Shown here one piece after another: positions 1 through 35,727 of a stretch of 49,258 nucleotides of DNA (position 1 is its first letter; each line of letters opens with the position of its first letter). This DNA comes from an uncultured bacterium. GTDB lineage: Bacteria; Omnitrophota; Gorgyraeia; Kaelpiales; Kaelpiaceae. The notes under the pieces are model-generated. The model worked only from the letters and a program-made list of their open reading frames with translations. It searched no databases and was not told the DNA's origin. A program made the translations under genes and the position numbers. Location of the stretch: positions 1 to 49,258 of the forward strand of contig CBEUCN010000003.1 of NCBI GenBank assembly GCA_965541635.1. Reading direction: 5' to 3'.

Positions 1-2
1 CA

Positions 3-587
3 GATATTCAAAGTGGAAATCAGATGGAGGAAGGTGCAGTTTTAAATTCTGTTGAGAATATTAATCCCGATAGCGCTTATATTGTAAATGTTCAAAGAGC
101 CATTGAAATGATTCAGAGTGGAGAGAATATAGAAAGGATATCTCAGGAGACAGGTTTAAGTAAAGAGATGGTCAAAGCACTTCAGGAAGCATGGAAAAAT
201 GGCACTATTATGAAGAATTCCAGTGGTGCTTACATAGTAGTCCAGGTTGAGGTTGACGGCGAAAAAAGAATAATAGTGATTCCTGCTGACACTATAATAT
301 ACGTTACTTCTTCCAAACCCAGTGAAATTGTTAAAGAGATAATAAAGAAAGTTTTCCTTAAAAAGCCCCAGGTCTCTGATGCTACCGTAAATAGGATATT
401 TATCCTGTTGATCCTACTGGCTGTAGCGTGTATGGCTGGAGGAATTACCCTGGCAATAGTGATTACAAGAAGAGAATACAGAAAATGGCTGGAGCAAATC
501 CCATTACCCCAAAAGCCTGCAGGAAAAGAGACCAGACCTGTTTATACCAAATTTGTAACCGACTATCACACTTATTATAGAAAATAA
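3..587 (+). CDS. Hypothetical membrane protein, probably truncated at the 5' end by the window edge
   Basis: The frame is open from base 3 (DIQSGNQ) through the ATG at 24. It has an HTH-like segment (ENIERISQETGLSKEMVKAL) and one hydrophobic helix (IFILLILLAVACMAGGITLAIVI) near the C-terminus. Confidence 0.7.
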   Translation, partial: DIQSGNQMEEGAVLNSVENINPDSAYIVNVQRAIEMIQSGENIERISQETGLSKEMVKALQEAWKNGTIMKNSSGAYIVVQVEVDGEKRIIVIPADTIIYVTSSKPSEIVKEIIKKVFLKKPQVSDATVNRIFILLILLAVACMAGGITLAIVITRREYRKWLEQIPLPQKPAGKETRPVYTKFVTDYHTYYRK

Positions 588-631
588 CAGATCCCTAATT
601 GTTTAATATTCTTTAAAAATAATTTATATTT

Positions 632-659
632 GTGTCCGATAATATATCTTATGTTAACT
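632..659. other. dif-like XerC/XerD recombination site
   Basis: GTGTCCGATAA-TATATC-TTATGTTAACT has the 11-6-11 layout. The right arm matches the E. coli XerD arm TTATGTTAAAT at 10/11 positions, with 20/28 overall. It is intergenic, between convergent genes. Confidence 0.8.
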
Positions 660-2201: not shown

Positions 2202-2978
2202 ATGGAGGATAAAGGATTTCAAAAAGTCTGGGAATTAGTTAAAAAATTACGAGGACCTCAAGGCTGCCCCTGGGATAAAGAGCAAAACCATTACACTCTT
2301 CTCCCCTATCTTATTGAAGAAGTATATGAAGTTGCCAATGCCGTTGAGAAAGGTGATGTTGAGGATTTGAAAGAAGAGCTGGGAGATTTACTTTTTATGG
2401 TTTTTTCCTATATTTCAATTGCAGAAGAAAAAAATTTATTTCGGTTGAAAGAAGTAATAGATGTTGTTATGCGCAAGATGGTTGCCCGCCATCCTCATGT
2501 ATTTGGAGGAAAAAAATTGAAAACTTCTCAGGATGTTGTAAATCACTGGCATAAAATCAAAGATGAGGAAAGAAAAAAGAAGAAAAAATCTATTATGGAT
2601 AACATTCCTCGGAATATCTCTGCTCTTATTCGGGCTAAACTGGTTCAAGAAAGAGCCTCTCGAGTGGGGTTCGATTGGAAGAGCGCGCAAGATGCATTTT
2701 TAAAAGTTAAGGAAGAAATTAAAGAGATCGAACAACTTCTATATAAGTCACAAAGTCAAGAAAAGTTACAGGAAGAAATTGGTGATCTATTATTTGCTGT
2801 AGTAAATGTTATCAGACTTTTAAATATTGATCCTGAGATAACCTTGAGGGAAACAATAGAAAAATTTATTCAGAGGTTTAAATATATTGAAAGCAAAATC
2901 ACTGAACAGAATAAATCATTACACGAAGTTACACTTGATGAAATGGAATCTTTATGGAAAGAGAGTAAAAGAATTTAG
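2202..2978 (+). CDS. mazG: Nucleoside triphosphate pyrophosphohydrolase MazG (two domains)
   Basis: Motifs LRGPQGCPWDKEQ, EELGDLL, RHPHVFG, ASRVGFDW and EEIGDLLF. Confidence 0.96.
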   Translation: MEDKGFQKVWELVKKLRGPQGCPWDKEQNHYTLLPYLIEEVYEVANAVEKGDVEDLKEELGDLLFMVFSYISIAEEKNLFRLKEVIDVVMRKMVARHPHVFGGKKLKTSQDVVNHWHKIKDEERKKKKKSIMDNIPRNISALIRAKLVQERASRVGFDWKSAQDAFLKVKEEIKEIEQLLYKSQSQEKLQEEIGDLLFAVVNVIRLLNIDPEITLRETIEKFIQRFKYIESKITEQNKSLHEVTLDEMESLWKESKRI

Positions 2979-3226
2979 AATTTCCAGTCTTCTCCTTTGA
3001 AGAATTCACCGTATTCATCAAAAATTTTATTTAAGGTATCTAACATACTCTGTTTTAATTTCTGTTTAAATTTCTCCATTTCTTCTGGATGATTGTTTCT
3101 AATATGTCCTAAAAGATTAAACTGAATATTTCCTAAAAGATCGGCAAGATCATCAGCTTCTACAATTATTTTTTCTCCACAAAAGCACTGGATTGCTATC
3201 CTGTATTTTTTTATCTCTTCTCGCAT
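2975..3226 (-). CDS. Small putative metal-binding protein (CxC...HxxxxH, loosely DUF1059-like)
   Basis: QCFCG and GHIRNNHP motifs. Strong SD (AAGGAGG) before the ATG. Confidence 0.65.
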   Translation of the reverse strand: MREEIKKYRIAIQCFCGEKIIVEADDLADLLGNIQFNLLGHIRNNHPEEMEKFKQKLKQSMLDTLNKIFDEYGEFFKGEDWKF

Positions 3227-3254
3227 CTTTCCTCCTTCTTATTAGATGGTATTT

Positions 3255-3283
3255 ATTAAACCATTATCACATTAAAAAAGCAA
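3255..3283 (-). promoter_or_regulatory. Putative sigma70 promoter for the 83-aa gene
   Basis: TTGCTT, a 17-nt spacer ending in TGG, then TTTAAT (extended -10 type). Confidence 0.4.
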
Positions 3284-3295
3284 TTAAAAATAATG

Positions 3296-3613
3296 TTAGT
3301 CAAATCCCCAAGTTTTCTTTTTCACTCGAAGTTTATCATCTGATGCCAATTCAAACCAGATACAGGCGCATGATATTGAGTATTTTATATTGTAACGCCA
3401 GATTTCTGATAACCCATGCTTCTGGGAAATAAAATAAGAGATTTTTATAGGTTCTCCTAACAAATCTTTTACCTCCTGTTTGGTCATTCCTATTTGAACT
3501 GATTGATATTGTTGGGCATCTATGCTACGATAGAAAAATCTATAGGAATAGGTAATTATCATAACAATTGTTAGAAGAATTAGATAAATAACCTCTTTAT
3601 TTTGCTTACGCAT
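3296..3613 (-). CDS. SmpA/OmlA (BamE-like) domain protein with an N-terminal membrane anchor
   Basis: N-terminal hydrophobic helix. The segment YQSVQIGMTKQEVKDLLGEP...WRY fits the SmpA/OmlA signature. No lipobox Cys is seen. Confidence 0.6.
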   Translation of the reverse strand: MRKQNKEVIYLILLTIVMIITYSYRFFYRSIDAQQYQSVQIGMTKQEVKDLLGEPIKISYFISQKHGLSEIWRYNIKYSISCACIWFELASDDKLRVKKKTWGFD

Positions 3614-3615
3614 GA

Positions 3616-4878
3616 TTAACCTCCTTTGTGAAGATATTTCCGGGGGTCAGTAATTTTACCTTCTAAAGCTGAAGCAGCAACTGTAGCTGGAGATGCTAAA
3701 TAAATAAAAGCGTTGGGATTACCCATTCTGCCTTTAAAATTTCTATTAGCAGTGGAAATTACTACTTCTCCATCTGCAGGAATCCCTCCATGCGTTCCTA
3801 CACAGGGACCACATCCTGGAGGTAAAATTAGGGCTCCAGAATCAATAAAAGTTTTTATCAAACCTTCTTCCAATGCCTGCTGTAAAATCTCATGAGAAGC
3901 CGGGGTTATAATAAGTCTTGCTTGTGTTTTCTTATTTTTTAATATGTGGGCAGCAATCCTCAAATCCTCCAGTCTTCCATTGGTACATGTGCCTATATAA
4001 GCCTGGTGAATTTCAGTGCCTTCTACTTTTTCAACATTTGCTACATTATCTACTCGATGAGGTAAAGCAATCTGAGGACTAAGGTTAGAAATGTCAAATT
4101 CTTTCACCCAAAGATAATCAGCATCGTTGTCGGGATAAACCGGTTCCCACTTAGAATCCTTACATTTTTCTTTTAACCAGGAAAATGTTTTCTCATCAGC
4201 AACCATCAGTCCTGCTTTTGCTCCCAGTTCTACTGCCATGTTGGTGATTGTAAATCTGGCATCCATACTTAAAGATGAAATTGTTTCGCCATGAAATTCT
4301 ATTGCTTTATAAGTACAGGATTTTGCTGATAGTTCTCCAATAATGTATAGAATTATATCTTTAGCAGAAACTGCAGGAGGCAGTTCTCCGTTTATTATAA
4401 TCTTAACACTTTCGGGAACCTTAAACCAATTTTTCCCTGTAGCCAGCACTATTGCGACATCTGTAGAACCCATTCCAGTAGCAAAACTGTTTAAAGCGCC
4501 ATAGGTACAAGTGTGTGAATCGGCTCCCGTAATTAAACTTCCCGGGTAAGCATGACCTTTTTCCATTATTACCTGATGGCATACTCCTTTGCCCTCAGGA
4601 TAAATTAAAACGCCAGTTTTATCTGCAAATTCCTTCATTTTTTTATGAACATTGGAAATTCCTAAATTAGGACTAGGGACGCTGTGATCGATTACTAAAG
4701 CAAATTTATGAGGAGAAAAGGGTTTTTCTTTACCTAGTAAATAAAATGCATCTATAACCAGTGAACTTGTTCCGTCTTGAGAAAAAGCAAAGTCAACCTC
4801 AGCCTTTACTATATCACCACTACAAGCATTTTTTCCTGATTTTTGGCTAAGTATTTTTTCAGCAATTGTTTTACCCAT
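3616..4878 (-). CDS. leuC: 3-isopropylmalate dehydratase/homoaconitase-type large subunit (short 420-aa form)
   Basis: Motifs GADSHTCTYGA, IGTCTNGR, CGPCVG (4Fe-4S ligands), STANRNFKGRMG and YLASPATVAASA. Substrate specificity is uncertain. Confidence 0.88.
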   Translation of the reverse strand: MGKTIAEKILSQKSGKNACSGDIVKAEVDFAFSQDGTSSLVIDAFYLLGKEKPFSPHKFALVIDHSVPSPNLGISNVHKKMKEFADKTGVLIYPEGKGVCHQVIMEKGHAYPGSLITGADSHTCTYGALNSFATGMGSTDVAIVLATGKNWFKVPESVKIIINGELPPAVSAKDIILYIIGELSAKSCTYKAIEFHGETISSLSMDARFTITNMAVELGAKAGLMVADEKTFSWLKEKCKDSKWEPVYPDNDADYLWVKEFDISNLSPQIALPHRVDNVANVEKVEGTEIHQAYIGTCTNGRLEDLRIAAHILKNKKTQARLIITPASHEILQQALEEGLIKTFIDSGALILPPGCGPCVGTHGGIPADGEVVISTANRNFKGRMGNPNAFIYLASPATVAASALEGKITDPRKYLHKGG

Positions 4879-6022
4879 TTATAAATTCTCCAATTCTGGC
4901 TATTCCTTCTTTTATTTCTTGTTCAGAAGTAGCATAACTTATTCTGACAAATTCATCATTTCCAAATGGTTTTCCAGGAATAACACCTACAAGTTTATTT
5001 TTAAGGAGTTCATTAGCAAATTTAAAGGAATCATATCCTATATTGCTTACTTTAAGAAAAAGATAAAATGTCCCTTCTGGAAATATAAAATTCAATCCTA
5101 GCTTTTTCAAACCAGAGACCACCAGGTTCCTACGTTCTCTGAAAATGTGACGCATATTGTCTATTTCTTGCTGTGGTAAATCCAACGCAGCCAATGCTGC
5201 TTTTTGACTTATACTACAAGCATTGGAAGTCATCTGCCCCTGAATTTTTGCTATCTGGCTTGCAATTTGAGGAGGAGAACATGACCACCCAATTCTCCAC
5301 CCAGTCATAGAATATGTTTTAGATACTCCGTTGATTGTAATTGTATGATTCCAGATTTCTTTGCTTAAGGAAGCAATAGAAAAATGAGCATTTTCATAAG
5401 TGAGTTGGCTATATATTTCATCACTAATAATGAAAATATCATTTTCCACTGCCAGTTCTGCCAGTTTAATAAGTTCTGATTTTCTCCATACAACTCCAGT
5501 AGGATTACAGGGAGAGTTAAGGATAATGCATTTTGTCTTTTTAGTTATTTTTGATCTTATCATGTTAAAATCAGGATGAAAGTTATCTCTTTCTTTAAAA
5601 TCCACCACCACTGGTTTTGCTGAACACAACTTTACCATTTCCGGGTAACTTACCCAGTATGGGGAAAAAATTAATACTTCGTCTTCAGGTTCCAGTAGAA
5701 CAAATAAAGTATTGAAAATAGCATGCTTGGCTCCATTGGAAATAACTATTTCATTAGGATTATAATTTAAGGAATACCACTCATTAAGTTTAGAGGATAT
5801 TTTTTCTTTCAAATCTAGGATACCAGTAACTGGAGTATATTTAGTAAAACCAGCATCTATTGCTTTTTTTGCTGCTTGTTTAATTGCGGCTGGGGTATCA
5901 AAATCAGGTTCTCCACCTGCAAAGTTAATTACTTTTTTCCCTTCTTTTTTAAGACGCTTAATTTCAGAAGTTATTTTTAAAGTAGCAGAAGGATTTATTT
6001 CTTTTACTCGCGAAGAAACCAT
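4871..6022 (-). CDS. aspC: PLP-dependent class I/II aminotransferase (aspartate aminotransferase-like)
   Basis: Motifs GEPDFDTP, NSPCNPTG, SDEIY and SKTYSMTGWRIG. Confidence 0.9.
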   Translation of the reverse strand: MVSSRVKEINPSATLKITSEIKRLKKEGKKVINFAGGEPDFDTPAAIKQAAKKAIDAGFTKYTPVTGILDLKEKISSKLNEWYSLNYNPNEIVISNGAKHAIFNTLFVLLEPEDEVLIFSPYWVSYPEMVKLCSAKPVVVDFKERDNFHPDFNMIRSKITKKTKCIILNSPCNPTGVVWRKSELIKLAELAVENDIFIISDEIYSQLTYENAHFSIASLSKEIWNHTITINGVSKTYSMTGWRIGWSCSPPQIASQIAKIQGQMTSNACSISQKAALAALDLPQQEIDNMRHIFRERRNLVVSGLKKLGLNFIFPEGTFYLFLKVSNIGYDSFKFANELLKNKLVGVIPGKPFGNDEFVRISYATSEQEIKEGIARIGEFING

Positions 6023-6031
6023 TACTTATAA

Positions 6032-6670
6032 TTAAGGATTCTTTTTTCTTTTCATAAAGTCCTTAAGTCCTGAAAGGAAACCTTTTTTGGCTGGTTTTTC
6101 TTCCTTTTGTTTTTGTTCTTTTTCAGTTTCTTCCTTCTTTTTGGGTTCTTCTTCTACTTTGGATTCTGCTTTCTTTTTTGTTTTCTTTTTCTCTTCTTTT
6201 ACCTCTTCTATTTTTACTTCTTCTATCTCGGAAGGAATTTCTTCCTGTAATTGTTTCTTTCTTTTTTCACGGCGTAAAAACCGCCGTTTTTTCTTTTCTT
6301 CTATTATTTCTTCTTTCACTTTTGTAAATTCAATAATTGCCATTAAGGCATTATCACCTTTTCTGTTATTTACCTTAATTACTCTAGTATACCCACCATT
6401 TATCTCCTTAAATCTGGGAGCAATGTCATCAAATAGTTTTTTAACAAGATCTCTATCTTGAAGCCAGCGGTAAGCCAATCTTCGGGAATGGATATCTCCT
6501 CGTTTCCCAAGAGTCACCAGTTTATCTGCCCATCGCGAAACTTCTTTTGCTCTTCGATAGGGAGTTTTTATTTTTTCTTCAGTTATTAAAGCAATTAATA
6601 AACTCCGAATTAATGCTCTTCTCTGATCTTGTGGTTTCCCGAGCTTAAATCTCTTTTTGCGATGCCGCAT
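6032..6670 (-). CDS. rplQ: 50S ribosomal protein L17 with a ~95-aa C-terminal extension
   Basis: MRHRKK...GGYTRVIK...RKGDNA core. Follows rpoA. K/E-rich tail. Confidence 0.97.
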   Translation of the reverse strand: MRHRKKRFKLGKPQDQRRALIRSLLIALITEEKIKTPYRRAKEVSRWADKLVTLGKRGDIHSRRLAYRWLQDRDLVKKLFDDIAPRFKEINGGYTRVIKVNNRKGDNALMAIIEFTKVKEEIIEEKKKRRFLRREKRKKQLQEEIPSEIEEVKIEEVKEEKKKTKKKAESKVEEEPKKKEETEKEQKQKEEKPAKKGFLSGLKDFMKRKKNP

Positions 6671-12245: not shown

Positions 12246-12692
12246 TTAAATTTTTATTGTTTTCCCACCTTTAGATTCAATTTTTTCTTTAGCAGATTTG
12301 CTAAAAGCATGAGCGCAAACTTCCAGTTTTTTATCCAATTCTCCCTTGCCCAAAATTTTTACTGGCTTGTTAATGTAACGGATAATTCCTTTTTGTTTTA
12401 AGGTTTCAGGAGTTATCTTATCACCATTCTGAAATTTAATATTTAAACTTAAAATATTTACTTCCTGGTATTCTTTAGTAAATCTGGCATTATTAAATCC
12501 TCTTTTTGGTATTCTTCTAATCAGTGGCATCTGTCCACCTTCAAAATATGGTCGAATCCCAGGATGGGATCTTTTTTTCTGTCCATCCATTCCCCGGCCA
12601 CAAGTTTTACCGTATCCAGAACCAGAACCTCTTCCTACTCTTTTTTTCTTCCTGTTTGCTCCTGGTGGTGATTTTATTTCATGCAACTGCAT
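12246..12692 (-). CDS. rplO: 50S ribosomal protein L15
   Basis: RVGRGSGSG and FEGGQMPL. Start moved to the ATG at 12692 (MQLHEI). Confidence 0.97.
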
Positions 12693-13200
12693 TTTCTCCC
12701 ACCTCTTCATCTTTTTTGTTGGTTTCTATACCAGAGTTAACAAGTTGAGATTCTCTCGCCAGTCGTAATTGCCTGAGGGCAACCATTGTTGCTTTGGCCA
12801 GATTTACTGGGGTGGTAGACCCCAAGGCTTTAGTCAAAATATCTTTTATCCCAGCCATTTCACATATTGCTCTCACTACACCTCCAGCAATCACTCCTGT
12901 TCCTTGGGAAGCAGGCTTTAACAATACTTTAGATGCACCAAAACAACCCACTACTTCATGAGGAATAGTAGTTCCTTGAAGAGCAACTTTTGTCATATTT
13001 TTCTTTGCTTCTTTTATACCTTTTCGAATAGCATCGGCTACTTCATGGGCTTTTCCCAGTCCAATGCCCACTTTACCCTGGCCATCTCCTACAGTAACCA
13101 AGGCATTAAATGAAATACTTTTCCCACCCTTATGAACTTTGGTAACACGATTTATGGTTATAACCTTTTCCGAAATTACAACTTCCTGTTCTTCTACCAC
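12679..13200 (-). CDS. rpsE: 30S ribosomal protein S5
   Basis: RVTKVHKGG and [12 protein letters not shown]. Start moved to the GTG at 13200, which has an AGGAGG SD. Confidence 0.97.
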
Positions 13201-13213
13201 TTCTCTACCTCCT

Positions 13214-13591
13214 TTAAAATTCCAAACCTGCTTCCCGAGCAGCATCTGCTAAGGCTTTTACTCTTCCATGATATTTATATCCACCACGGTCAAAAACCAC
13301 CTTGGTAATTCCTTTTTCCTTTGCTTTTTCCCCCAGTAGTTTCCCAACTTTTCTGGCTGCTTCTATATTCCCACCCGTTTTCAGTTCTGCTTTCAGTTCG
13401 GGAGAAAGAGTTGATACTGTGAGGAGAGTTTTACCTTGCGTATCATCTATTAGATGGGCATATATATGCCTTAAACTCCGAAATACAAAAAGTCGCGGAC
13501 GTTCTGAAGTTCCAAAAATCTTCTTTCTTATTCTCTTATGCCTTCTTAATCTTGCTTTTCTCTTTTTTTTCATCAAGTTAGAAATGTCCAT
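13214..13591 (-). CDS. rplR: 50S ribosomal protein L18
   Basis: RPRLFVFRS and [12 protein letters not shown]. Confidence 0.99.
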
Positions 13592-13594
13592 TTG

Positions 13595-14134
13595 TTACTT
13601 TACTCCTGCTTTTCCTGCTTTTCTCCGGACATATTCTCCTCGATACCTTATTCCTTTTCCTTTATATGGTTCCGGAGGATAATAATCTCTAATTTCAGCA
13701 GCCACTTCTCCTACTTTCTGCTTGTCTATCCCTTTAACTATTATAGTAGTAGGGTTAGGAGTCTCTATAGTTATACCTTCTGGTATAGGATATTCTACAG
13801 GATGAGAAAATCCTAATTGCATAACTAACTTTTTCCCTTGGACCTGAGCGCGATATCCTACTCCTACTATCTCCAACTCTTTCTGAAATCCCTGTGTTAC
13901 ACCAACTACCATATTATTTATAATTGCTCTGGTAAGTCCGTGAAGAGCACGGATTCTTTTTTCGTCACTTTCTCTTTTAACAATTACCTGGTCATTTTCA
14001 ATTTCCACTTTTATTCCCTCTGGTATCTGGAAATTTAATTTTCCTTTAGGACCTTCAATTAAAATATCTCTATTCTGGATATAACATTTCACATTATTAG
14101 GTAAACGTACTGGTTTTTTTCCTATCCTAGACAT
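13595..14134 (-). CDS. rplF: 50S ribosomal protein L6
   Basis: MSRIGK, GVGYRA and PEPYKGKGIRY. Confidence 0.99.
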   Translation of the reverse strand: MSRIGKKPVRLPNNVKCYIQNRDILIEGPKGKLNFQIPEGIKVEIENDQVIVKRESDEKRIRALHGLTRAIINNMVVGVTQGFQKELEIVGVGYRAQVQGKKLVMQLGFSHPVEYPIPEGITIETPNPTTIIVKGIDKQKVGEVAAEIRDYYPPEPYKGKGIRYRGEYVRRKAGKAGVK

Positions 14135-14149
14135 GGCGTATTCTCCTTT

Positions 14150-14548
14150 TTAATATACATAGCAGATGACTTCTCCTCCTACTTTTAATTTTCTTGCTTG
14201 GTCATCAGTAACTACTCCTTTTGAAGTAGTCAATATAGCTGTTCCTATCCCTCTTAATACTCTGGGAACTTCCTCTTTATTTACATACACTCTTCTACCT
14301 GGTTTAGAAATTCTTTTAATATCAATCAACGCTGGGCTATTTTTATTCAGATATTTGAGATAAACTCTGATTATTCCCTGTTTATTATCTTCTATGAATC
14401 TATAATCTTTTATATACCCTTCTCTTTTTAGAATATCTATTATCGCTAATAACAGTTTGGAACCTTTTAAATTCACTACCTCTTTTCTCGCACGATAGGC
14501 ATTTTTAATTTTTACAAAAGCATCAGCCAAGGGATCGGTTACACTCAT
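14150..14548 (-). CDS. rpsH: 30S ribosomal protein S8
   Basis: DPLAD, ISKPGRRVY and VGGEVIC. Confidence 0.99.
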   Translation of the reverse strand: MSVTDPLADAFVKIKNAYRARKEVVNLKGSKLLLAIIDILKREGYIKDYRFIEDNKQGIIRVYLKYLNKNSPALIDIKRISKPGRRVYVNKEEVPRVLRGIGTAILTTSKGVVTDDQARKLKVGGEVICYVY

Positions 14549-14557
14549 CTTTACCTC

Positions 14558-14743
14558 CTACCAGCTCGCTTTGGTAACTCCAGGAATTTCTCCCCGGGAG
14601 GCCATTTCCCGAAAACATATTCTGCACAATCCAAATCTTCTCATATAACCGTGTCTTCGTCCACATATCTGACAGCGGTTATATTTTCGCACTTTAAATT
14701 TTGGTTCTTTCTGCGCTCGTAAAATTTGGGATTTTTTTGGCAT
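14558..14743 (-). CDS. rpsZ: 30S ribosomal protein S14, type Z (zinc-binding)
   Basis: 61 aa with RCQICGR...CRICFR and GVTKASW. Confidence 0.98.
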
Positions 14744-14745
14744 TT

Positions 14746-15294
14746 CTATTTCCTCCTGAAAGGCATTCCTAAAAGTTTTAATAGTTCCAATGCTTCCTGC
14801 TTAGTTTTAGCAGTGGTCACAAATGTTATATCCATTCCTTGAATATTTTTTACTTTATCAAGGTTAATTTCTGGAAATATTGTCTGTTCTTTTAGTCCTA
14901 GAGTATAATTACCACCACCATCAAATCCTTTATTTGTAGGTAAACCCTGAAAGTCTCTTACTCGTGGTAAGGCAACATTAACCAAGCGATCAAAAAATTC
15001 GTACATTTTATCCCCTCGCAATGTTACCTTACAGCCTACAGGCATCCCTTTTCTGATTTTAAAGTTAGAGATTGATTTTTTTGCTCGTGTTATCATAGGA
15101 TGTTGTCCAGTAATTTGTGCTAATTCTTCCACCGCTCTATCTAAAATTTCAATATTGTGAGCACCTTCCCCTACTCCCATGTTAATGATGATCTTGTATA
15201 ATTTTGGAACCTGATGGATGTTTTTATATCCGAACTTTATCATTAATTCTGGAATTACTTTATCCCGATAATAATTATAAAGTCGAGCCTTCAT
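14746..15294 (-). CDS. rplE: 50S ribosomal protein L5
   Basis: NMGVG, KVTLRG and LPRVRDF. Confidence 0.99.
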
Positions 15295-15602
15295 ATCGTT
15301 TCACCACACTTTTTACATACCCTTACTTTAGTGCCATCTTCCAGAATTTTAAATCCTACCCGCACGCCTCTACCACATCTATTGCATACCGGCATTACAT
15401 TAGAGATATGAATTGGTGCCTCCATTTCTATAATTCCACCGGGCATATCCTGTCTTCTTTGTCGCATATGCTTTTTCACTATATTTATTCCCTGAACAAG
15501 TACTCTTTGATTTTGAGGATAAACTCTGATTACTTTTCCTCTTCTTCCTTTATCTTTACCAGTAATTACTTCTACAGTATCACCTTTTTTTATTCTTGCC
15601 AT
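15291..15602 (-). CDS. rplX: 50S ribosomal protein L24
   Basis: [24 protein letters not shown] and two CxxC motifs. Confidence 0.99.
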
Positions 15603-15611
15603 CGCATCCTC

Positions 15612-15980
15612 CTACAAAACTTCTGGTGCCAGAGAAATTATCTTCATGAAATTTTTGTCTCTTAATTCCCGAGCAACAGGCCCAAATACTCTGGTGCCAC
15701 GAGGATTCCCTTGTTTATCAATTAATACCACAGCATTACTATCAAATTTTATCCAAGTGCCATCACTGCGCTTTACTGGAAATTTGGTTCTTACCACCAC
15801 TGCTCTTACAACTTCTCCTTTTTTTACTGCTCCCTCAGGAGAGGCTTCCTTTACACTGGCAGTAATAACATCACCAATTTCAGCATATTTTTTATTAGAA
15901 CGACCAATAACTTTTATGCAAGCAACTTTTTTAGCTCCGCTGTTATCAGCCACATCTAATCGGGTTCGCATTTGAATCAT
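15612..15980 (-). CDS. rplN: 50S ribosomal protein L14
   Basis: [16 protein letters not shown] and SLAPEVL. Confidence 0.99.
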
Positions 15981-16228
15981 TTCAACACCTCAACCAATCG
16001 CCATCTTTTCTCCTTAGAAAGAGGACGAGTTTCTACTATTTTGACTTTATCTCCTATCTTGGCTTTATTCTCTTCGTCATGGGCTTTATATTTTTTGAAT
16101 TTTTTAATTGTTTTTTTGTACAACGGATGCTTTACCAATCTTTCCACTTTGACCACAATAGTTTTTTCCATTTTGTCTGAAACTACAGTTCCAATAAGTT
16201 CTTTCCTTTTACCTCTTTTCTTGTTCAT
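15977..16228 (-). CDS. rpsQ: 30S ribosomal protein S17
   Basis: VVSDKMEKT and ETRPLSK. Confidence 0.99.
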
Positions 16229-16229
16229 T

Positions 16230-16427
16230 TTAACTTACCTGTCTTTTTCTTTCGTTAAGAATTGTTTTTATTCTGGCTATGTCCCTTTTACAAGCTTTTA
16301 TTTCATGAGGTTTTTCCAGTCTCCCTATTTTAATGTCAGAACGTAACTGAAATAACTTTTTATATAACTCGTCCATTTTTTGATTTAACTCTTCATTAGT
16401 TAGGTTCCGTAAGTCTTTTGCTTTCAT
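16230..16427 (-). CDS. rpmC: 50S ribosomal protein L29
   Basis: MKAKDLR...RDIARIKT. Start moved to the ATG at 16427. Confidence 0.97.
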
Positions 16428-16840
16428 AATGCTTCTCTCTTTACAAACTTGCATTCCACGGGAAGTTTGTCAGAAGCTACCTTAAATGCTTCCTTAGCCA
16501 TCTCTTCAGGAACTCCTTCTAATTCAAATATAATTCGTCCTCTTTTTACAACTGCTACCCAAAATTCTACGTTTCCTTTTCCTTTACCCATTCTGGTCTC
16601 CAAAGGTTTTTTAGTAACTGGTTTGTCTGGAAATATTCTAATCCATAATTTACCACCTCGTTTTAACTGCCTAGTAATAGCCACACGTGCCGCCTCAATC
16701 TGACGGTTTGTTATCCAGGCATTACTTATAGCCTGCAAACCATACTCTCCAAATACAATGGTTGTCCCTCCTTTGGAGATTCCTTTCCTTCTGCCCCTCT
16801 GAGCTTTACGATATTTTACTCTTTTGGGCATCATAACCAT
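16424..16840 (-). CDS. rplP: 50S ribosomal protein L16
   Basis: QIEAAR, WIRIFPD and RMGKGKG. Confidence 0.99.
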
Positions 16841-16842
16841 TT

Positions 16843-17499
16843 TTAACTCTCCGTTTCTTTATCCTTTTCTAAAATGGCGTCTCCTTTATAGATCCAGACT
16901 TTGACTCCAATAAGTCCTGCTGTGGTTTTAGCCTCGGCAAATCCATAATCTATATCCGCTCTCAAAGTTTGAAGGGGAATTTTGCCTTCTTTATAAGTTT
17001 CACTACGCGCAATTTCAGCACCTCCAAGTCTACCTGCACAGTTGATCTTTATTCCTTTTGCTCCTCCTTCTATTGCCATTTGAATTGCTCTTTTCATAGC
17101 CCGGCGATGAGAAACTCTTTTTTCAATTTGAAGTGCTACATTTTCGGCAACTAACTGAGCACATACTGCAGGATTATTTACTTCTTTTATATCTATTACC
17201 AGTTCTTTGTCTTTAACTATATCCTGAAGATCTTCCTGAATTCTATCAATTTCAGCACCTCTTCTCCCAATAATTACTCCTGGACGAGCACTGTGAATTA
17301 TTACTCTTACTTTTTCAGGGTATCTTTCAATCTCTACATTGGCAATACCAGCATATTTAAGATTTTCTTTGATATACTTCCTTATTGCAAAATCTTCTTT
17401 TATGAATCTTTTTATATCCTGAGGTCGAGCAAACCACCGCGAACTCCAAGTTTTTATATATCCCAATCTATACCCGATTGGATGGACCTTTTGTCCCAT
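16843..17499 (-). CDS. rpsC: 30S ribosomal protein S3
   Basis: [17 protein letters not shown] and [11 protein letters not shown]. Confidence 0.99.
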
Positions 17500-17871
17500 T
17501 TATTTCTCTCCTCCTTTTGTTTTTAAAACTGGTGGATTCTTTAAATCCAGTTCTACAGTGATATGAGAAGTTCTTCTTCTGACCATTACTGCTCTCCCCA
17601 TACTTGCTGCACGATATCTTTTAAGCATTGGTCCCTGATCAGCAAAAATCCGGGATATATATAACTCCTGCATTTTAAGTCCATGATTATTCTCAGCGTT
17701 GGCTATTGCTGAATTCAAGACCTTTGCTACTATCCGTGCTGATTTCTTATTTAAATTATTTAATACCATTAATGCCTGCACTACATCTTTACCCCTAATC
17801 ATATCTATTACCTGTCTCACCTTACGGGGAGAAACTCGTATAAATCTTGCTTTAGCCCTGGTTACTGCCAT
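17500..17871 (-). CDS. rplV: 50S ribosomal protein L22
   Basis: SPRKVR, SAIANAENN and TSHITV. Confidence 0.99.
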   Translation of the reverse strand: MAVTRAKARFIRVSPRKVRQVIDMIRGKDVVQALMVLNNLNKKSARIVAKVLNSAIANAENNHGLKMQELYISRIFADQGPMLKRYRAASMGRAVMVRRRTSHITVELDLKNPPVLKTKGGEK

Positions 17872-17882
17872 TGTTTTCCACC

Positions 17883-18170
17883 TTACTTTTTCTGAAGTTT
17901 AGCCTTGGCTTTAATGCCACCATGGCCACGAAAAGTCCTTGTGGGAGCAAATTCTCCCAGTTTATGTCCTACCATTTTTTCTGTAACATGTACTGGAATA
18001 AATGTCTTGCCATTGTGAACTTCAAAAGTAAATCCCACGAACTCCGGTATTATTGTTGATCGCCGAGACCAGGTTCGGATAGGGCGTTTTTCTCCTGATT
18101 GTAACATCTTTTTTACCTTTTTCAGTAATTTTTCATCAACAAAAGGTCCCTTTTTAAGTGATCTCGGCAT
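17883..18170 (-). CDS. rpsS: 30S ribosomal protein S19
   Basis: RSLKKGPF and [11 protein letters not shown]. Confidence 0.99.
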
Positions 18171-18176
18171 TGGTTA

Positions 18177-19010
18177 TTACCCTCCCTTTTTCTTCTTTTC
18201 GCGCCTTTTAACTATGAATTTATCTGAAGCCTTATTCTTTTTTCTGGTCTTATATCCTTTTGAAGGCCATCCCCAAGGAGAAACAGAGGGTCTTCCTCCC
18301 GAGGTATCTCCTCCCATGGGATGGTCGATTGGGTTCATGGCTACTCCTCGCACGTGTGGTCTGATACCCAACCACCTTGACCTCCCTGCCTTACCCAGAC
18401 TTATATTTATATGGTCAGCATTACCTACCTGACCTATGGTAGCATAACAGTCTAAATGAATAAGTCTTACCTCTCCTGATGGCAGTTTAACATGTGCATA
18501 TTTTCCCTCTTTAGCTAGTATTTGAGCCCAAGTCCCTGCTGCTCTCACTAATTGAGCTCCTTTTCCTTTGTAAAGTTCAAGATTATGAATAGGAATACCT
18601 GTAGGGATATTTCTTAAAGGTAATGCATTACCGACTTTAATTTCTGCATTTTCCCCAGCAGATATCACTTCTCCAACTTTCAATCCTTGGGGCCATAAAA
18701 TGTATCTTCTTTCTCCATCTTCATATTCTAAGAGAGCAATTCGGGCACTCCGATTGGGGTCATATTCTATACTGAGGACTGTAGCATTTATCCCTCGTTT
18801 ATCTCTTTTAAAATCTATAATTCGGTAATGTCTTTTATGTCCACCTCCACGTCTGCGGACAGTAATATGTCCTTTACTATTTCTACCCCCAGTTTTTTTC
18901 AGAGGCTCAAGGAGAGATTTTTCGGGTTCTTTTTTAGTAATTTCTTCAAAGGTAGAATAACTCTGAAACCTCTGTGCCGGTGTTAATGGTCTTCTTTTCT
19001 TTATCCCCAT
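18177..19010 (-). CDS. rplB: 50S ribosomal protein L2
   Basis: [16 protein letters not shown] and [11 protein letters not shown]. Confidence 0.99.
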
Positions 19011-19018
19011 AATTTACC

Positions 19019-19291
19019 TCACTCTATTTTGTATCCTTCTTTTAAAGTAACAATTGCTTTTTTACTACTCGAAGTTTTACCTGGTTGCCACCATCTCAAT
19101 CTTCTAGGTTTAGGAGTAATTTTGACAGTAGCAACTGATTTAACTTTAACATTATAAATCTTTTCAATTGCCTGCCGGATTTGTATTTTATTTGCCCTTT
19201 TGTCTACTTCAAAAATATATTTCCTATCGGGTTCCATTAGACTTCCCTTTTCGGTGATTACCCTTCTTTTTATGATCTCATAAGGATTCAT
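19019..19291 (-). CDS. rplW: 50S ribosomal protein L23
   Basis: ITEK, ANKIQI and KKAIVTL. Confidence 0.98.
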   Translation of the reverse strand: MNPYEIIKRRVITEKGSLMEPDRKYIFEVDKRANKIQIRQAIEKIYNVKVKSVATVKITPKPRRLRWWQPGKTSSSKKAIVTLKEGYKIE

Positions 19292-19911
19292 TTTTTCTTT
19301 ATTTTCTCCTGAATCTGTTTAAGCCCATCCTGAGTAATTACCAGTTTTTTACAGTTCAAAACATCATAAGCAGTTATCTCAGAGGCACGCTTTAAAAATA
19401 CATAAGGTATATTTCTACAAGAAAGGCGAGTGGTTTTTGATGGTTCTGCAGTTACAAATAAAGTCTTAGTATTTAATAAGTTTAAATTTTTTAAAATTTG
19501 CTGAAACTGTTTAGTTTTAGGGGTATCTACTTGTAAAGAATCTAAAAGAAGTAAAGCCTGATTAATATATTTAGCATTAAGTCCTGATTTTAAAGCCAGT
19601 TTTTTCATTTTGGCAGGTAATTTGATATAATAATCACGTGGTTTGGGGCCAAATACTACCCCGCCTCCTCTCCAGATTGGTGACCGGATACTTCCTGCTC
19701 TTGCTCTTCCAGTATGCTTTTGAGGCCAGGGTTTTCTTCCACTCCCTCTGACTTCTCCTCGGGTTTTGGTATTGGCTGTGCCTTTTCTTTGATTGGTAAG
19801 ATAGGCATTTATAACCTGATAGAGTAGTTTCTTATTGACCTTGCCATCAAAAACTTGGGGGTCAAGGTCTATTTCTCCTACTTTTTCTCCTTGAATATTA
19901 TAAACATCCAT
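19288..19911 (-). CDS. rplD: 50S ribosomal protein L4
   Basis: KPWPQKHTGRARAGS and GGGVVFGPKPR. The ATG at 19911 just after the rplC stop is preferred; 19938 is the alternative. Confidence 0.96.
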   Translation of the reverse strand: MDVYNIQGEKVGEIDLDPQVFDGKVNKKLLYQVINAYLTNQRKGTANTKTRGEVRGSGRKPWPQKHTGRARAGSIRSPIWRGGGVVFGPKPRDYYIKLPAKMKKLALKSGLNAKYINQALLLLDSLQVDTPKTKQFQQILKNLNLLNTKTLFVTAEPSKTTRLSCRNIPYVFLKRASEITAYDVLNCKKLVITQDGLKQIQEKIKKK

Positions 19912-19912
19912 T

Positions 19913-20704
19913 TTAAGATTTAATGTTTCCACTTTCATCTTCCTTAATATTTTGCTGTTTTTCTTGTTCCGATTTTTGTTCCTCCGCTTTTTCTACCTCT
20001 CCCATTTCTTTTACTTCCTCACTCTCTTTTATTTTTCCTTCAGACTCAGGAATGACTAATTCTGATTTTTTCTTTGTGGCGCTTCGGATTATAAGAATTG
20101 AATTTATAGCACCAGGCACACATCCCTTAACTACCAAAAGATTTTTTTCTACATCAATATCTACTATTTCCAGATTTTGAACAGTAACCTTTTCATTTCC
20201 ATCATGTCCAGGCATATGAAGACCTTTCCATACCCGGGAAGGATCAGAACTGGCACCAACCGAACCGATTGCTCTATGAGATTTACTACCATGAGAACGA
20301 GGACCAATGTGCCAGCCCCAGCGTTTTACCCCACCCTGAAACCCTCTGCCTTTTGAATTTCCGGTAACATCTACGTATTCTCCGACATTAAAAATATTTA
20401 CTTTTAATTCCTGACCTGGAGAATATTTTTCTAACACCTCAGGATTCTTTATTCTAATTTCTTTTATATACTTCAATGGGTTCATTTTTAATTTGGAAAA
20501 CATCCCCATAACAGGTTTTTTTACTTTCTTTTCTTTTGTCTCGCCATAGCCAATTTTAATTGCTGAATAACCATGAGTTTGAGGAGTTTTAACTTCAAGG
20601 ACATAACAGGGGCCAGCTTGAATAACTGTTACTGGAATAGCAGATCCATCTTTAAATATTTGAGTCATTCCAATTTTTTTGCCTATCAATCCTTTAATTA
20701 CCAT
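19913..20704 (-). CDS. rplC: 50S ribosomal protein L3 with an acidic C-terminal extension
   Basis: GKKIGMTQIF, SKGRGFQG, SHGS and VKGCVPG, followed by a ~55-aa E/K/Q-rich tail. Confidence 0.98.
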   Translation of the reverse strand: MVIKGLIGKKIGMTQIFKDGSAIPVTVIQAGPCYVLEVKTPQTHGYSAIKIGYGETKEKKVKKPVMGMFSKLKMNPLKYIKEIRIKNPEVLEKYSPGQELKVNIFNVGEYVDVTGNSKGRGFQGGVKRWGWHIGPRSHGSKSHRAIGSVGASSDPSRVWKGLHMPGHDGNEKVTVQNLEIVDIDVEKNLLVVKGCVPGAINSILIIRSATKKKSELVIPESEGKIKESEEVKEMGEVEKAEEQKSEQEKQQNIKEDESGNIKS

Positions 20705-20752
20705 TTTTCTTTTTCCAATTTCTATCTAATTAGCCAACTAACAAACCTTCCA

Positions 20753-21067
20753 TTATTTTATTTCCACATATACTCCTGCCGGTAGATTTAACTTTCTAAG
20801 AGCATCTATGGTTTTAGCGGTCGGTTCTAAAATTTCAATCAGACGTTTATGGGTACATAATTGAAATTGCTCTCGTGATTCTTTATCAATATGAGGTCCT
20901 CGGATTACAGTGAATATTTCTCTTTTGGTTGGCAATGGAATGGGGCCAGAAACCTTTGCCCCCGTCCGTCTGGCAGTATTTACTATTTCCTGTGCAGACT
21001 GGTCTATCAGTCTGTGGTCATAAGCTTTCAACTTTATTCTTATTTTTGTTAAGTTTGCTTCTACCAT
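20753..21067 (-). CDS. rpsJ: 30S ribosomal protein S10
   Basis: [17 protein letters not shown] and SREQF. Confidence 0.99.
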
Positions 21068-21082
21068 TTTATTTCAACCAAT

Positions 21083-22282
21083 TTATTCTACTATTTCTGA
21101 AACCACACCTGCTCCTACTGTTCTACCACCTTCCCTTATAGCAAACCTTAATTCCTTCTCCAATGCTACTGGCTTTATCAACTCTACCTCTAATTCTACA
21201 TTGTCTCCTGGCATTACCATTTCTACTCCCTGGGGCAGTTTTATCACTCCAGTTACATCTGTAGTCCGGAAATAAAACTGAGGCCGATATCCATTGAAAA
21301 ATGGTGTATGCCGTCCTCCTTCTTCCTTCGTTAATACATATACTTGAGCCTTGAATTTTGTATGCGGTGTTATACTTCCTGGCTCAGCCACTACCATGCC
21401 TCGCTCTACATCCTCTTTCTCTATACCTCGCAATAATAATCCCACATTGTCTCCTGCTATGGCTTCATCTAAAATCTTTCTGAACATCTCTATACTCGTT
21501 ACCACTGTCTTTCTCGTTTCTCTTAATCCTACTAACTCTACCTCCGCTCCAGGAGTAATCCTCCCACGCTCCACTCTCCCTGTTACTACTGTGCCTCGCC
21601 CTGTTATTGAAAATACATCCTCTATTGCCATCAAAAATGGCTTGTCAATGTCTCTTTTGGGAGTGGGTATATACTCATCTACTGCCTTCATCAACTCTAT
21701 TACTGGCTTGCATTTCTCACAATCATCTTTGCCACACCCACATTCCATAGCCAGAAGCGCACTCCCTTTTACTACCGGTACCTCATCTCCTGGAAAATCA
21801 TACTTGGATAACAATTCCCTTACTTCAAGTTCTACTAGATCTATCAGTTCCTTATCATCTACTTGGTCAGTTTTGTTCAAAAATACCACTATCGCAGGAA
21901 CATTTACTTGACGCGCTAATAATATATGTTCTCTGGTCTGAGGCATAGGGCCATCTGCTGCACTCACTACCAGTATCGCTCCATCCATCTGCGCTGCTCC
22001 TGTTATCATGTTCTTTACATAATCAGCATGCCCCGGACAATCTATGTGAGCATAATGACGGTTCTCTGTCTGATACTCTACATGCGCTATGTTAATGGTT
22101 AACCCTCTCTCCTTTTCCTCCGGTGCATTGTCGATATCTTCATACTTCTTTTCTTCAGCCATTCCTCTCTTTGCCAGTACTTTGGTTATTGCTGATGTTA
22201 ATGTTGTCTTACCATGGTCAACATGTCCTATCGTTCCTACATTTACATGAGGTTTTGTCCTTTCAAATTTCTCCTTCGCCAT
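21083..22282 (-). CDS. tuf: Elongation factor Tu (str-operon copy)
   Basis: [21 protein letters not shown] and RFAIREGG. Confidence 0.99.
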
Positions 22283-33051: not shown

Positions 33052-33528
33052 TTATTTCAATTCTACTTTTGCTCCCACTGCCTCCAATTTCTTCTTTATC
33101 TCTTCTGCCTCTTCCTTCTTTATTCCAGTAACCACTGGTTTTGGCGCTGATTCTACAAGTTCTTTCGCTTCCTTAAGTCCGAGATTGGTTACTGCTCTTA
33201 CCTCCTTAATAACTTGAATCTTATTATTGCCAACTTCAGCCAAAATGACATCGAATGTAGTTTTTTCTTCAGCTTCTGGTGTGGCAGCACCTCCTCCAGC
33301 TGGAACTCCTGCTGCTACCCCCATAACTGGCATAGCAGCACTCACTCCAAATTTTTCTTCTAATGCTTTTACGAGATTGGCAAGTTCCAATACAGATAAT
33401 GATTCAATTTCTTCAATAATCTTTTTTTCTTTTTCCCCTAACTCCACAGAACTAGTTTGCTGTTTTTCCTCTTGTTTTGCTTCTTCCTGTTTAACTTCTT
33501 GTTCCTGATTTTGAATATCCTCTACCAT
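33052..33528 (-). CDS. rplL: 50S ribosomal protein L7/L12 with an N-terminal Q/E-rich extension
   Basis: [19 protein letters not shown] and [11 protein letters not shown]. Start moved to the ATG at 33528, which has a GAGGT SD. Confidence 0.97.
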
Positions 33529-33547
33529 TTTCTTTACCTCCTTCCTT

Positions 33548-34075
33548 TTATTGAGATTCTTTCTTTTCCTTAATCTGCCTGAGAGCATTGACCAAGGAAT
33601 TTATATTAGCCTTAAGCACATATACCAAATTGGAAATAGGTGATTTAATTATCCCAACCATTTGAGTATAAAGAGTATTACGAGAAGGCAACTCTGCTAT
33701 TTTTAATATTCTCTTTTCATCAAAAACTTTACCTTCCAGATATCCTGCTCTGAGTTTTAATCCTTCATATTCTTTCCCCAATTCTTTTATCTGTTTAGTA
33801 ACTACAATTGGGTCTCCTTTTCCATATATCAAGGCTAATTCTGCCTGAATAAAATTAACAATTTGCTCCAGGTGGGAATCTTCTAAGGCTTTTTTTAATA
33901 AATTGTTTCTCACCACCATCATTTCTGAAGAAAGTTCTCTAAGTTTTGCTCGAATATCCTTTAAACCATTTGCATTTATCCCTTTGAAATTTGTAAGTAT
34001 AATGTATTGGGAAGATTGGATTCTCTTTTTATACTCATTAACCATCAGCTGTCTTGTAAGAACCCCAATTTTCAT
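33548..34075 (-). CDS. rplJ: 50S ribosomal protein L10
   Basis: [11 protein letters not shown] and IAELPSR. Lies between rplA and rplL. Confidence 0.96.
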
Positions 34076-34767
34076 CTTGTAACCTCCTTGAGGTCTATTT
34101 TGAGACCTGGTCCCATGGTAGTAGAAATAGCCATCTTTTTAATATATTGACCTTTGGCAGAAACTGGTTTTGCCCGATATAAGGCATCTATAAAGGCATT
34201 TATATTTTCTACCAGATGGTCAACGGGAAAAGAAATCTTTCCTATACCTACATTAACCACTCCGGTCCTATCTACTTTAAAATCTAACTTTCCGGACTTT
34301 GCCTCCTTTATTGCTTTTTCTATATTATCAGTAACAGTCCCCACTTTAGGGCTGGGCATTAATCCCCGGGGACCTAAAATTTTTCCCAATTTTCCGACTT
34401 CTCTCATCATATCAGGAGTGGCAATTGCAACATCAAAATCTAACCATCCTGATTGTATTTTGGCTATTAAGTCTTCATTACCCACATAATCAGCACCGGC
34501 TGCTTGTGCCTCTTTTTCTTTCTCTCCTTTAGCAAATACTAAAACCTTTATTTTTTTCCCTAATCCATGAGGAAGAACCACACTTCCTCTAACCATCTGA
34601 TCACTCTTTTTGGGATCAACGTTGAGTTTACAGGAAACTTCCACTGTTTCATCAAAGTTAGGACGAGGAATATCTTTTAAGATTTCTACCGCCTCTCGTA
34701 TACTGTAAACCTTATTAGTATCTACTTTCTCTAGAATTTGATTGAATCTTTTGCTCCTTTTTGCCAT
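34072..34767 (-). CDS. rplA: 50S ribosomal protein L1
   Basis: [14 protein letters not shown] and STTMGPG. Start moved to MAKRSKR at 34767. Confidence 0.98.
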
Positions 34768-34768
34768 T

Positions 34769-35200
34769 TTATCCCTCAATCACTTCTATGCCCATACTGC
34801 GGGCAGTTCCCTCTACAATTTTCATAGCCTTTTCTATGTCTTTAGTATTTAAATCAGGAAGTTTCTCCTGAGCAATTTCTCTCAACTTTTCTCTAGTAAT
34901 TTTTCCTACTTTTTCTTTATTGGGCACTCCCGAACCTTTAGCTAGGCCACAAGCCTGTTTAAGTAAAACGGAAACAGGGGGATTTTTAATTATGAAACTA
35001 AAACTTCTATCCTCATAGACCTCAATTTCTACCGGTAATATAAGTCCCATTCTGTCTTTTGTTTTGTCATTGAACGCCTTACAGAATTCCATAATATTTA
35101 CACCATGTTGACCAAGTGCAGGTCCTACAGGAGGAGAAGGATTTGCCTGTCCTCCGGGACAGTAAAGTTTAATTTTTGCCACTACTTTTTTCTTAGCCAT
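34769..35200 (-). CDS. rplK: 50S ribosomal protein L11
   Basis: [22 protein letters not shown] and GTARSMG. Confidence 0.99.
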
Positions 35201-35202
35201 TT

Positions 35203-35727
35203 TTAAATCCTTTCCACTTGCCAGAATTCCAGTTCTACCGGAGTCTGTCTTCCAAATATGGTAAGTAAAACTTTAACCCTGCCCTTTTCTAAATTTACCT
35301 CTTCCACTTTCCCGTTAAAGTTAGTAAATGGACCATCAATTACCCGTACGGTCTCACCTTTTTCAAAAACAACTTTAGGACGAGGTTGCTCAATTCTCTC
35401 TTCACTCTGGTGTTTAATTTTTATAACCTCCTCTTCTGGCAGAGGGACTGGTTTATCTCCTGAACTTAAAAATCTGATTACTCCTGGAGTTCTTTTTACC
35501 AGGAGCCAGGTATCATCATTCATTTCCATCTGTACTAAAACATATCCAGGATAAAATTTGCGTTCGCTAACTCTCTTTTTCCCTGCCTTAACTTCAGTAA
35601 CTTTTTCAGTAGGTACAAATACCTCTTTTATCAAATCTTCCAGTCCTTCTTGTTTAATTTTATTATCTAATGCCTGCTTCACTTTATATTCCTGCCCGGT
35701 CTGAGTTTGAACTATATACCATTCCAT
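35203..35727 (-). CDS. nusG: Transcription elongation factor NusG
   Basis: [17 protein letters not shown] motif VIDGPF and FGRQTPVEL. Confidence 0.99.

Follow-up and report, generated by a model that had tools for sequence, protein, structure and literature searches.

The window, a stretch of 49,258 nucleotides that makes up the entire contig C3 of an uncultured Omnitrophota bacterium, very probably contains a genuine site for resolving chromosome dimers where replication ends. We are largely confident that positions 632 to 659 are the chromosomal dif of this bacterium, that the site marks the terminus, and that the ribosomal protein/RNA polymerase supercluster sits beside that terminus. The dif/Xer system itself is canonical; its chromosomal setting is unusual. 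The genome under study (G000) is metagenome-assembled and comprises 136 contigs with 1,320,344 bp, an estimated completeness of 95.5%, and a contamination of 0.47%. The features near the site are given below, where the supercluster was defined from the ORF list and from Pfam matches of the ORFs outside 12246–21067 and 33052–35727.

3–587, + strand: 3' part of an ORF for a family-less protein with a C-terminal hydrophobic stretch, truncated at the end of the contig and pointing towards the site from its XerC-arm flank
632–659, + strand: probable dif site, with the XerC arm at 632–642, the central region at 643–648, and the XerD arm at 649–659
705–1133, − strand: YjbQ/UPF0047 protein (Pfam/NCBIfam)
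1310–1654, − strand: HIT protein (Pfam/NCBIfam)
1667–2152, − strand: metallophosphoesterase (Pfam/NCBIfam)
2202–2978, + strand: MazG (Pfam/NCBIfam)
2975–3226, − strand: 83-aa ORF, the end of the five-gene block on the dif side
3296–6022, − strand: BamE-like protein, aconitase-family subunit, and aminotransferase, which travel with rplQ/rpoA in relatives
6032–37412, − strand: supercluster of rplQ, rpoA, rpsD, rpsK, rpsM, map, adk, secY ... tuf, fusA ... rpoC, rpoB ... and a second tuf, transcribed towards dif

As read from the + strand of the window, the site is GTGTCCGATAA TATATC TTATGTTAACT, a 28-bp sequence with an 11-6-11 layout in which the inner arm bases form an ATAA/TTAT inverted repeat and 5 of the 11 arm positions are complementary. 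It occupies the center of a 117-bp spacer between two convergent genes, with 44 nt separating it from the stop of the + ORF at 3–587 and 45 nt from the end of the − gene at 705–1133. When compared with the experimentally confirmed dif sites printed in the portion of Kono et al. 2011 (PMC3025954) that we consulted, the whole 28-mer matched Escherichia coli dif at 20 of 28 positions and Bacillus subtilis dif at 21 of 28, and the XerD arm was identical to both at 10 of 11 positions. The site thus has the same 28-bp 11-6-11 format, XerD arm, and inner repeat as the dif/XerCD systems of these species, which are activated by FtsK/SpoIIIE. It also has the same single copy in G000 and, encoded in G000, separate XerC and XerD equivalogs and an FtsK gamma domain, and in four relatives (G028, G023, G137, and G099) the site lies at the skew switch. 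The XerC arm, in contrast, shares just 6 of 11 bases with either known site; the consulted portion of the same paper describes this arm as more variable than the XerD arm in all phyla, and Omnitrophota were absent from the portion of its Table 1 examined. The sequence-only reading had proposed a 28-bp 11-6-11 site with a near-canonical XerD arm and an ATAA/TTAT repeat, and both the sequence and the 10/11 arm match agree with that description.

Searching the window with up to three mismatches returned one match, and none of 100 shuffled sequences matched. In the whole of G000, no other locus lay within seven mismatches of the site. A position weight matrix was built from 20 sites of 19 relatives, leaving out the site at 632–659; the latter scored 39.4 of a maximum of 45.7 bits, and the runner-up position in 1.32 Mb reached 11.0 bits. 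A scan for other or better dif sites, one of the checks proposed with the sequence-only reading, therefore returned none in G000, and one copy per chromosome was found for the assembled 1.32 Mb (95.5% complete). The genome is AT-rich (36% G+C) and TTATGTTAA by itself is present 29 times, as might suit a palindrome that arose by chance within AT-rich intergenic DNA; nevertheless, the absence of matches among the shuffles, the 28-bit gap to the next site, and the recurrence of the core described below (88 of 151 genomes, against none for its reversed sequence) leave that explanation practically no probability.

The best-named relatives of the RpoA protein belong to Candidatus Omnitrophota. Conservation was assessed within the class, first with a loose pattern in 30 relatives drawn from 22 families. 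It matched 21 of these genomes, and true-looking sites were present in 19 of the 30, yielding the consensus ACGTCC[G/T]ATAA T[A/G]TAT[C/A/G] TTATGTTAACT. Eight remaining loci that fitted the loose pattern were judged chance-like and discarded, as each was without the T[A/G]TAT center. Across the 20 sites of these relatives, positions 8–28 are almost fixed and positions 1–7 are variable, and the flanks of the 19 relatives' sites are unrelated from family to family. We searched 151 genomes of the class, G000 included, with a stricter 19-base core, ATAATRTATNTTATGTTAA, and found it in 88: once in 86 and twice in two (G015 and G080). The exact core was missing from the other 63, and the reversed core, used as a control, was found in 0 of 151. 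Among other Omnitrophota classes, 9 of 59 genomes contained the exact core. A short motif that is held constant in one copy amid changing surroundings is a functional site. The consensus provides a usable dif motif for a candidate phylum that has been studied mostly through metagenomes, and it permits the terminus to be placed and contigs to be oriented in hundreds of fragmented Omnitrophota genomes; as an example of such use, G044 and G087 were flagged as rearranged or misjoined.

The recombination machinery was located in G000 as well, another of the proposed checks. XerD is encoded on C67 (295 aa; TIGR02225, 384.5 bits versus a cut-off of 329.6) and XerC on C52 (290 aa; TIGR02224, 351.2 bits versus a cut-off of 335.15). 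FtsK is encoded on C1 (738 aa) and has 4TM, alpha, motor, and gamma domains, with the gamma domain matching PF09397 at 100.9 bits. A third tyrosine-recombinase fragment, a 90-aa open frame, was noted at a contig end (G000:C46:8883–9023, locus L003). By homology with E. coli and B. subtilis, the left, variable arm of the site would be bound by XerC and the right, conserved arm TTATGTTAACT by XerD. The septal DNA translocase FtsK would move towards dif and activate XerD via its gamma domain, and chromosome dimers would be resolved at division by a pair of strand exchanges in the 6-bp center.

The sequence-only reading had also noted that genes converge on the site, + on the left and − for all but mazG over 48 kb on the right. 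The right-hand half of that statement held, in that the called genes at 705–49088 and both tRNAs (tRNA-Trp and tRNA-Thr, − strand) agree with it; the left-hand half comes down to one truncated + ORF in 631 bp. Because the contig stops 631 bp to the left of dif, a skew switch is not demonstrable in G000, and for the same reason the position of the terminus was deduced from relatives. Convergence by itself is weak evidence, since skew follows gene strand and four more small convergent points exist in G000 (on C7, C33, C40, and C45). We also set aside the GC skew of G000 as a separate line of evidence, as it tracks strand gene by gene and adds nothing past gene direction. Contigs of G000 longer than 8 kb show almost uniform skew (about ±0.15–0.25), with 80 to 95% of long ORFs on one strand, and dnaA lies on contig C13 at a divergent switch at ∼7.3 kb. 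The polarity of the genome is thus the usual one, with genes and G-richness running from dnaA to dif.

Relatives with longer flanks were more informative. On G028:C2, cumulative GC skew peaks in the 100–105-kb bin that contains dif (103,512), and the + fraction of long ORFs drops there from 0.7–0.9 to 0.1–0.5, mostly ∼0.3. G023:C27 exhibits a skew peak and a strand switch in the bin of dif (198,971), with ORF direction changing from ∼0.9 to ∼0.1, and in G137:C1 and G099:C27 the skew and gene-direction switch falls inside the 10-kb bin containing dif. The site is roughly opposite dnaA in three genomes: the complete Omnitrophota chromosome G031 (OY759724.1; 3,360,633 bp), in which dif is 1.46 or 1.90 Mb from dnaA (43/57%); the one-contig G087 (1,974,201 bp), with dnaA at 316, dif at 797,599, and arms of 40/60%; and G106, a genome of ∼2.2 Mb in which a single contig carries both with 1.05 Mb between them. 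Two single-contig genomes are less regular. In G087 the AT skew flips exactly at dif and the sign of GC skew changes at 920–1000 kb, 120 to 200 kb beyond it, a pattern from 797599 to ∼1000000 that would be explained by a recent inversion, or by a misjoin, next to dif. In G044 (1,553,238 bp) the distance from dif is 193 kb to dnaA and 573 kb to rpoA, and the contig has a sharp local switch at dif yet six skew/gene-direction switches overall; this points to a scrambled chromosome or to a scaffold put together in the wrong order. The + and − segments of this G044 contig sum to two roughly equal arms.

The displaced GC-skew sign change of G087, together with the statement in the consulted portion of Kono et al. 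2011 (PMC3025954) that termination need not be strictly at dif, raises the question of whether dif is real and the forks meet elsewhere, such that the ribosomal block adjoins dif without being the last DNA replicated. We consider this improbable. The four genomes with clean profiles (G028, G023, G137, and G099) switch in the same 5–10-kb bin as dif, and even in G087 the AT skew does flip at dif, fitting a recent inversion alongside. Our preferred reading, and the main proposal of the earlier reading, that dif marks the terminus, is supported by the uniqueness of the site, its conservation in the class, the switches in relatives, the presence of XerC, XerD, and the FtsK gamma domain, and the location of dnaA elsewhere; the proposed skew and dnaA checks favor it through the four relatives that switch at dif and the divergent switch around dnaA on C13. 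On the terminus reading, dif would be the junction of the two replication arms, as shown in relatives, and therefore the − strand of the window would be the leading strand for forks that come in from the right. If the forks meet near dif, the supercluster would therefore be replicated last, head-on with nothing. The S10-spc-alpha, str, and rpoBC block, which ends 5.4 kb from dif, would thus be among the last DNA replicated and co-directional with the fork.

The flank on the XerC-arm side required separate consideration, as the site had alternatively been suggested to be the junction of a Xer-exploiting integrated element. Integrative mobile elements exploiting Xer (IMEX; e.g., the CTX phage) occupy dif and make its flank variable. 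In G000 the contig stops 631 bp out on this side, and the protein encoded there belongs to no recognized family: the ORF at 3–587 has no Pfam or NCBIfam match, and it is 85% identical to a homologue of at least 395 aa in the sister species G001 and 36% identical to an ORF that lies 13 kb from dif in G004. Contigs break 0.6 to 1.6 kb from dif on this side in G000, G001, G005, and G008 (window 1–631, the end of G001:C19, G005:C34:1–601, and G008:C2:34978–36552, respectively), so that a variable zone appears right beside dif. The contig of G001 extends 614 bp further left than C3, and neither this DNA nor the 395-aa ORF matches any other G000 contig. In G004, 15 kb on the XerC-arm side (C6:7053–22014) is without G000 homologues; its 16 ORFs include six that match the DUF520, cyclophilin, Ysc84, MMPL, and MgtC families and 10 that match none, and 0 of the 16 match phage or integrase Pfam families. 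Beyond that stretch G004 has homologues of G000 C51, up to the end of C51. From the G004 synteny alone, our guess is that C51 (+ genes, GC skew of +0.148) is the likely left neighbor past an unassembled variable stretch.

These observations, with the two core copies in G015, G080, and G214, are what could be cited for an attachment junction of a XerCD-exploiting element, the true dif then lying elsewhere or in unassembled DNA. Against it, a second dif-like site is absent both from G000, which is 95.5% complete and where the next position scores 11.0 bits, and from the dif contig of G004, the flank of which lacks phage or integrase domains. Furthermore, the site has the class consensus, and its position with respect to YjbQ-HIT-MPE-MazG is identical in three genera. 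The flank therefore resembles that of an IMEX at dif in being variable, and differs in having neither a duplicated or degenerate second site nor element genes. We regard the element as very unlikely, and the sequence-only alternative is left unsupported by the lack of a second site and by the conservation of the XerD-arm flank across genera. The contig breaks were also considered as a sign of an element and dismissed: many sites are <2 kb from a contig start, but the contigs are short and the excess is modest. We read the variable XerC-arm flank of the chromosomal dif as ordinary plasticity of the terminus region, with a small doubt arising from the unassembled left flank. The duplicate core copies are at G015:C109:743 and C179:210, G214:C98:147 and C120:1157, and G080:C14:266242 and C41:2041. 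Five of these six are within ∼2 kb of a contig start, the copy on G080:C14 being 266 kb in. The duplicates might stem from a Xer-exploiting element, from mixed strains, or from contamination (8% in G080).

The distance from dif to the end of rplQ (6032) is 5,373 bp, in accordance with the ∼5.4 kb first estimated between the site and the end of the supercluster. The proposed comparison with relatives showed that this linkage holds in the sister species G001, an independent assembly with 86% DNA identity, in which one contig carries the same order of left ORF, dif, YjbQ, HIT, MPE, MazG, 83-aa ORF, BamE-like protein, aconitase, aminotransferase, L17, RpoA, S4, and SecY. The five-gene block from YjbQ to the 83-aa ORF adjoins the XerD arm in G001, G004, and G008. 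Past the 83-aa ORF, G004 (same family) has homologues of G000:C1, and G008 (same family) has no ribosomal block within 35 kb of dif; in G005, the BamE-like protein, aconitase, aminotransferase, L17, and RpoA are encoded on a contig other than that of dif. The aconitase-family and aminotransferase genes adjoin L17/RpoA in G001, G005, and G011, and the BamE-like gene does likewise in G001. Because G004, G008, and G005 differ beyond the five-gene block, the 5.4-kb adjacency of dif and the ribosomal genes is genus-specific. Intervening DNA may have been lost or moved in this genus, leaving the five-gene block and three genes between dif and rplQ.

An assembly of 136 contigs, and the other genes that G008 and G004 of the same family carry past the 83-aa ORF, might raise the suspicion that dif is real and that a chimeric assembly has placed it close to the ribosomal block. 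Such a chimera is extremely unlikely, given that a single contig of G001, a separate species (86% DNA identity), shows an identical order. Moreover, the 3226–3296 junction is spanned by contigs of three public runs, each from a different study, though one run may be the source sample; these public-run contigs are short and of low depth. Apparent "joints" in the public-run contigs, with sides of 20 to 30 bases, were rejected as most likely coming from other organisms. Misassembly between 660 and 6000, which had been named as something to check, thus left no sign: G001 is collinear and the 3226–3296 junction is bridged.

We then asked how far dif and the ribosomal block stay together across the class. 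Of the 88 core-bearing class genomes, 86 had rpoA, and it was on the dif contig in 18 of those 86. Adding four of eight further core-bearing class genomes from the phylum sample, along with G001, gave a total of 23 of 97. The distances from dif to rpoA in these 23 genomes were 6, 7, 40, 47, 49, 50, 50, 51, 52, 56, 64, 64, 68, 81, 82, 89, 133, 151, 184, 204, 213, 228, and 573 kb, with a median of 64 kb and 16 of the 23 within 90 kb. In every one of the 23, rpoA is transcribed towards dif. It is on the XerD-arm side in 17 and on the XerC-arm side in six (G016, G087, and G114 of one genus; G044, G080, and G224). Same-contig counts favor short distances, and relatives are not independent. As a control for the short-distance bias, we determined how often rpoA shares a contig with dnaA: this was the case in 2 of 138 genomes with both genes, both of them one-contig, and in 0 of 136 multi-contig genomes. 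The comparison of 16 of 84 multi-contig genomes with rpoA on the dif contig versus 0 of 136 with rpoA on the dnaA contig gave p = 8e-8 by Fisher's test, with kinship ignored. In the closed-looking G087, rpoA is at 94% of the path from dnaA to dif.

Among the 15 class genomes with the core and no more than 10 contigs, rpoA was within 90 kb of dif in seven, at 204 to 228 kb in two, at 573 kb in one (G044), and on another contig in five; in these five split genomes the minimum distance, if contigs adjoin, is 81, 119, 154, 167, or 272 kb. Likewise assuming adjoining contigs, the distance is at least 272 kb in G077, at least 167 kb in G017, and at least 368 kb in G106 (20 contigs). At least three well-assembled class genomes thus have the block >270 kb from dif. 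The class trend of a block near dif is strong and not universal, the exceptions being G044, G077, and G106. Outside the class, rpoA was on the dif contig in 0 of nine genomes with the exact core, most of whose contigs may be short. The two placeable genomes of other classes have the block in the origin-proximal third: in G031, the distance from rpoA is 0.54 Mb to dnaA and 1.37 Mb to dif, and in G168 rpoA is 244 kb from dnaA in ∼2.5 Mb. An origin-proximal layout was not what we found in G000, where the supercluster is on C3 by dif and dnaA is on C13. The earlier suggestion of a supercluster kept at the terminus and co-oriented with the fork is thereby supported, with rpoA directed towards dif in 23 of 23 genomes and dnaA on C13 rather than C3.

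Ribosomal protein and RNA polymerase genes near the origin are a textbook case of replication shaping gene position. In the portions consulted of the Vibrio cholerae relocation studies (PMC4395360, PMC5347342, PMC12993453), S10-spc-alpha and rplKAJL-rpoBC are origin-proximal in fast growers, and origin-proximity of ribosomal/RNA polymerase loci is treated as a rule for fast growers in the parts of these papers and of PMC10127744 that we consulted. Compared with the V. cholerae-type layout, the Omnitrophota arrangement has the same conserved block, likewise co-oriented with replication, but the block is 5.4 kb from dif here and mostly 40 to 230 kb from it class-wide, at the opposite end of the axis. 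A limited literature search found no dif or replication-terminus analysis for Omnitrophota. In most of the class, no more than a few per cent of the chromosome separates the block from dif, and in one genus the gap is 5 kb. A counter-example to the origin-proximal rule is noteworthy; the mechanism is not new.

The number of rRNA gene copies is linked to growth rate. One 16S rRNA gene was found in G000 (C19:2319–3893), which suggests a slow grower that would not use overlapping rounds of replication. Without multifork replication, genes close to the origin would gain nothing in copy number, and placement at the terminus would therefore be tolerated. The sole 16S gene of G087, at 402 kb from dif and 774 kb from dnaA, is likewise not origin-proximal.

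It is possible, though we hold it to be doubtful, that the terminus-proximal supercluster is a derived trait of this small-genome Omnitrophota class that has been kept by selection and is not a frozen accident. The block is within about 40 to 230 kb of dif in at least 13 families, the genes between differ, and the side changed in 6 of 23 genomes. As an alternative to selection, an inherited position may have been held by inversions symmetric about the terminus, and side changes around dif are what such inversions would produce. If the position is selected, the benefit might be late replication, single-copy dosage, or nearness to the septum and the FtsK-processed zone, and the class would be, to our knowledge, the first lineage-wide counter-example to the origin-proximal rule. 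The class offers a natural contrast for asking whether position matters without multifork replication, whether symmetric inversions are enough to keep a locus at the terminus, and whether heavy transcription beside dif is compatible with FtsK/XerCD action.

Two further features of the supercluster were observed. The EF-Tu genes at 21083–22282 and 36213–37412 differ at 1 of 1200 nucleotides; they are a tufA/tufB-type duplicate, near-identical within the supercluster. The rplQ ORF (6032–6670) overlaps the end of rpoA by 26 nt and encodes 212 aa, of which residues 20–115 correspond to the Pfam L17 domain, followed by a C-terminal extension of ∼95 aa.
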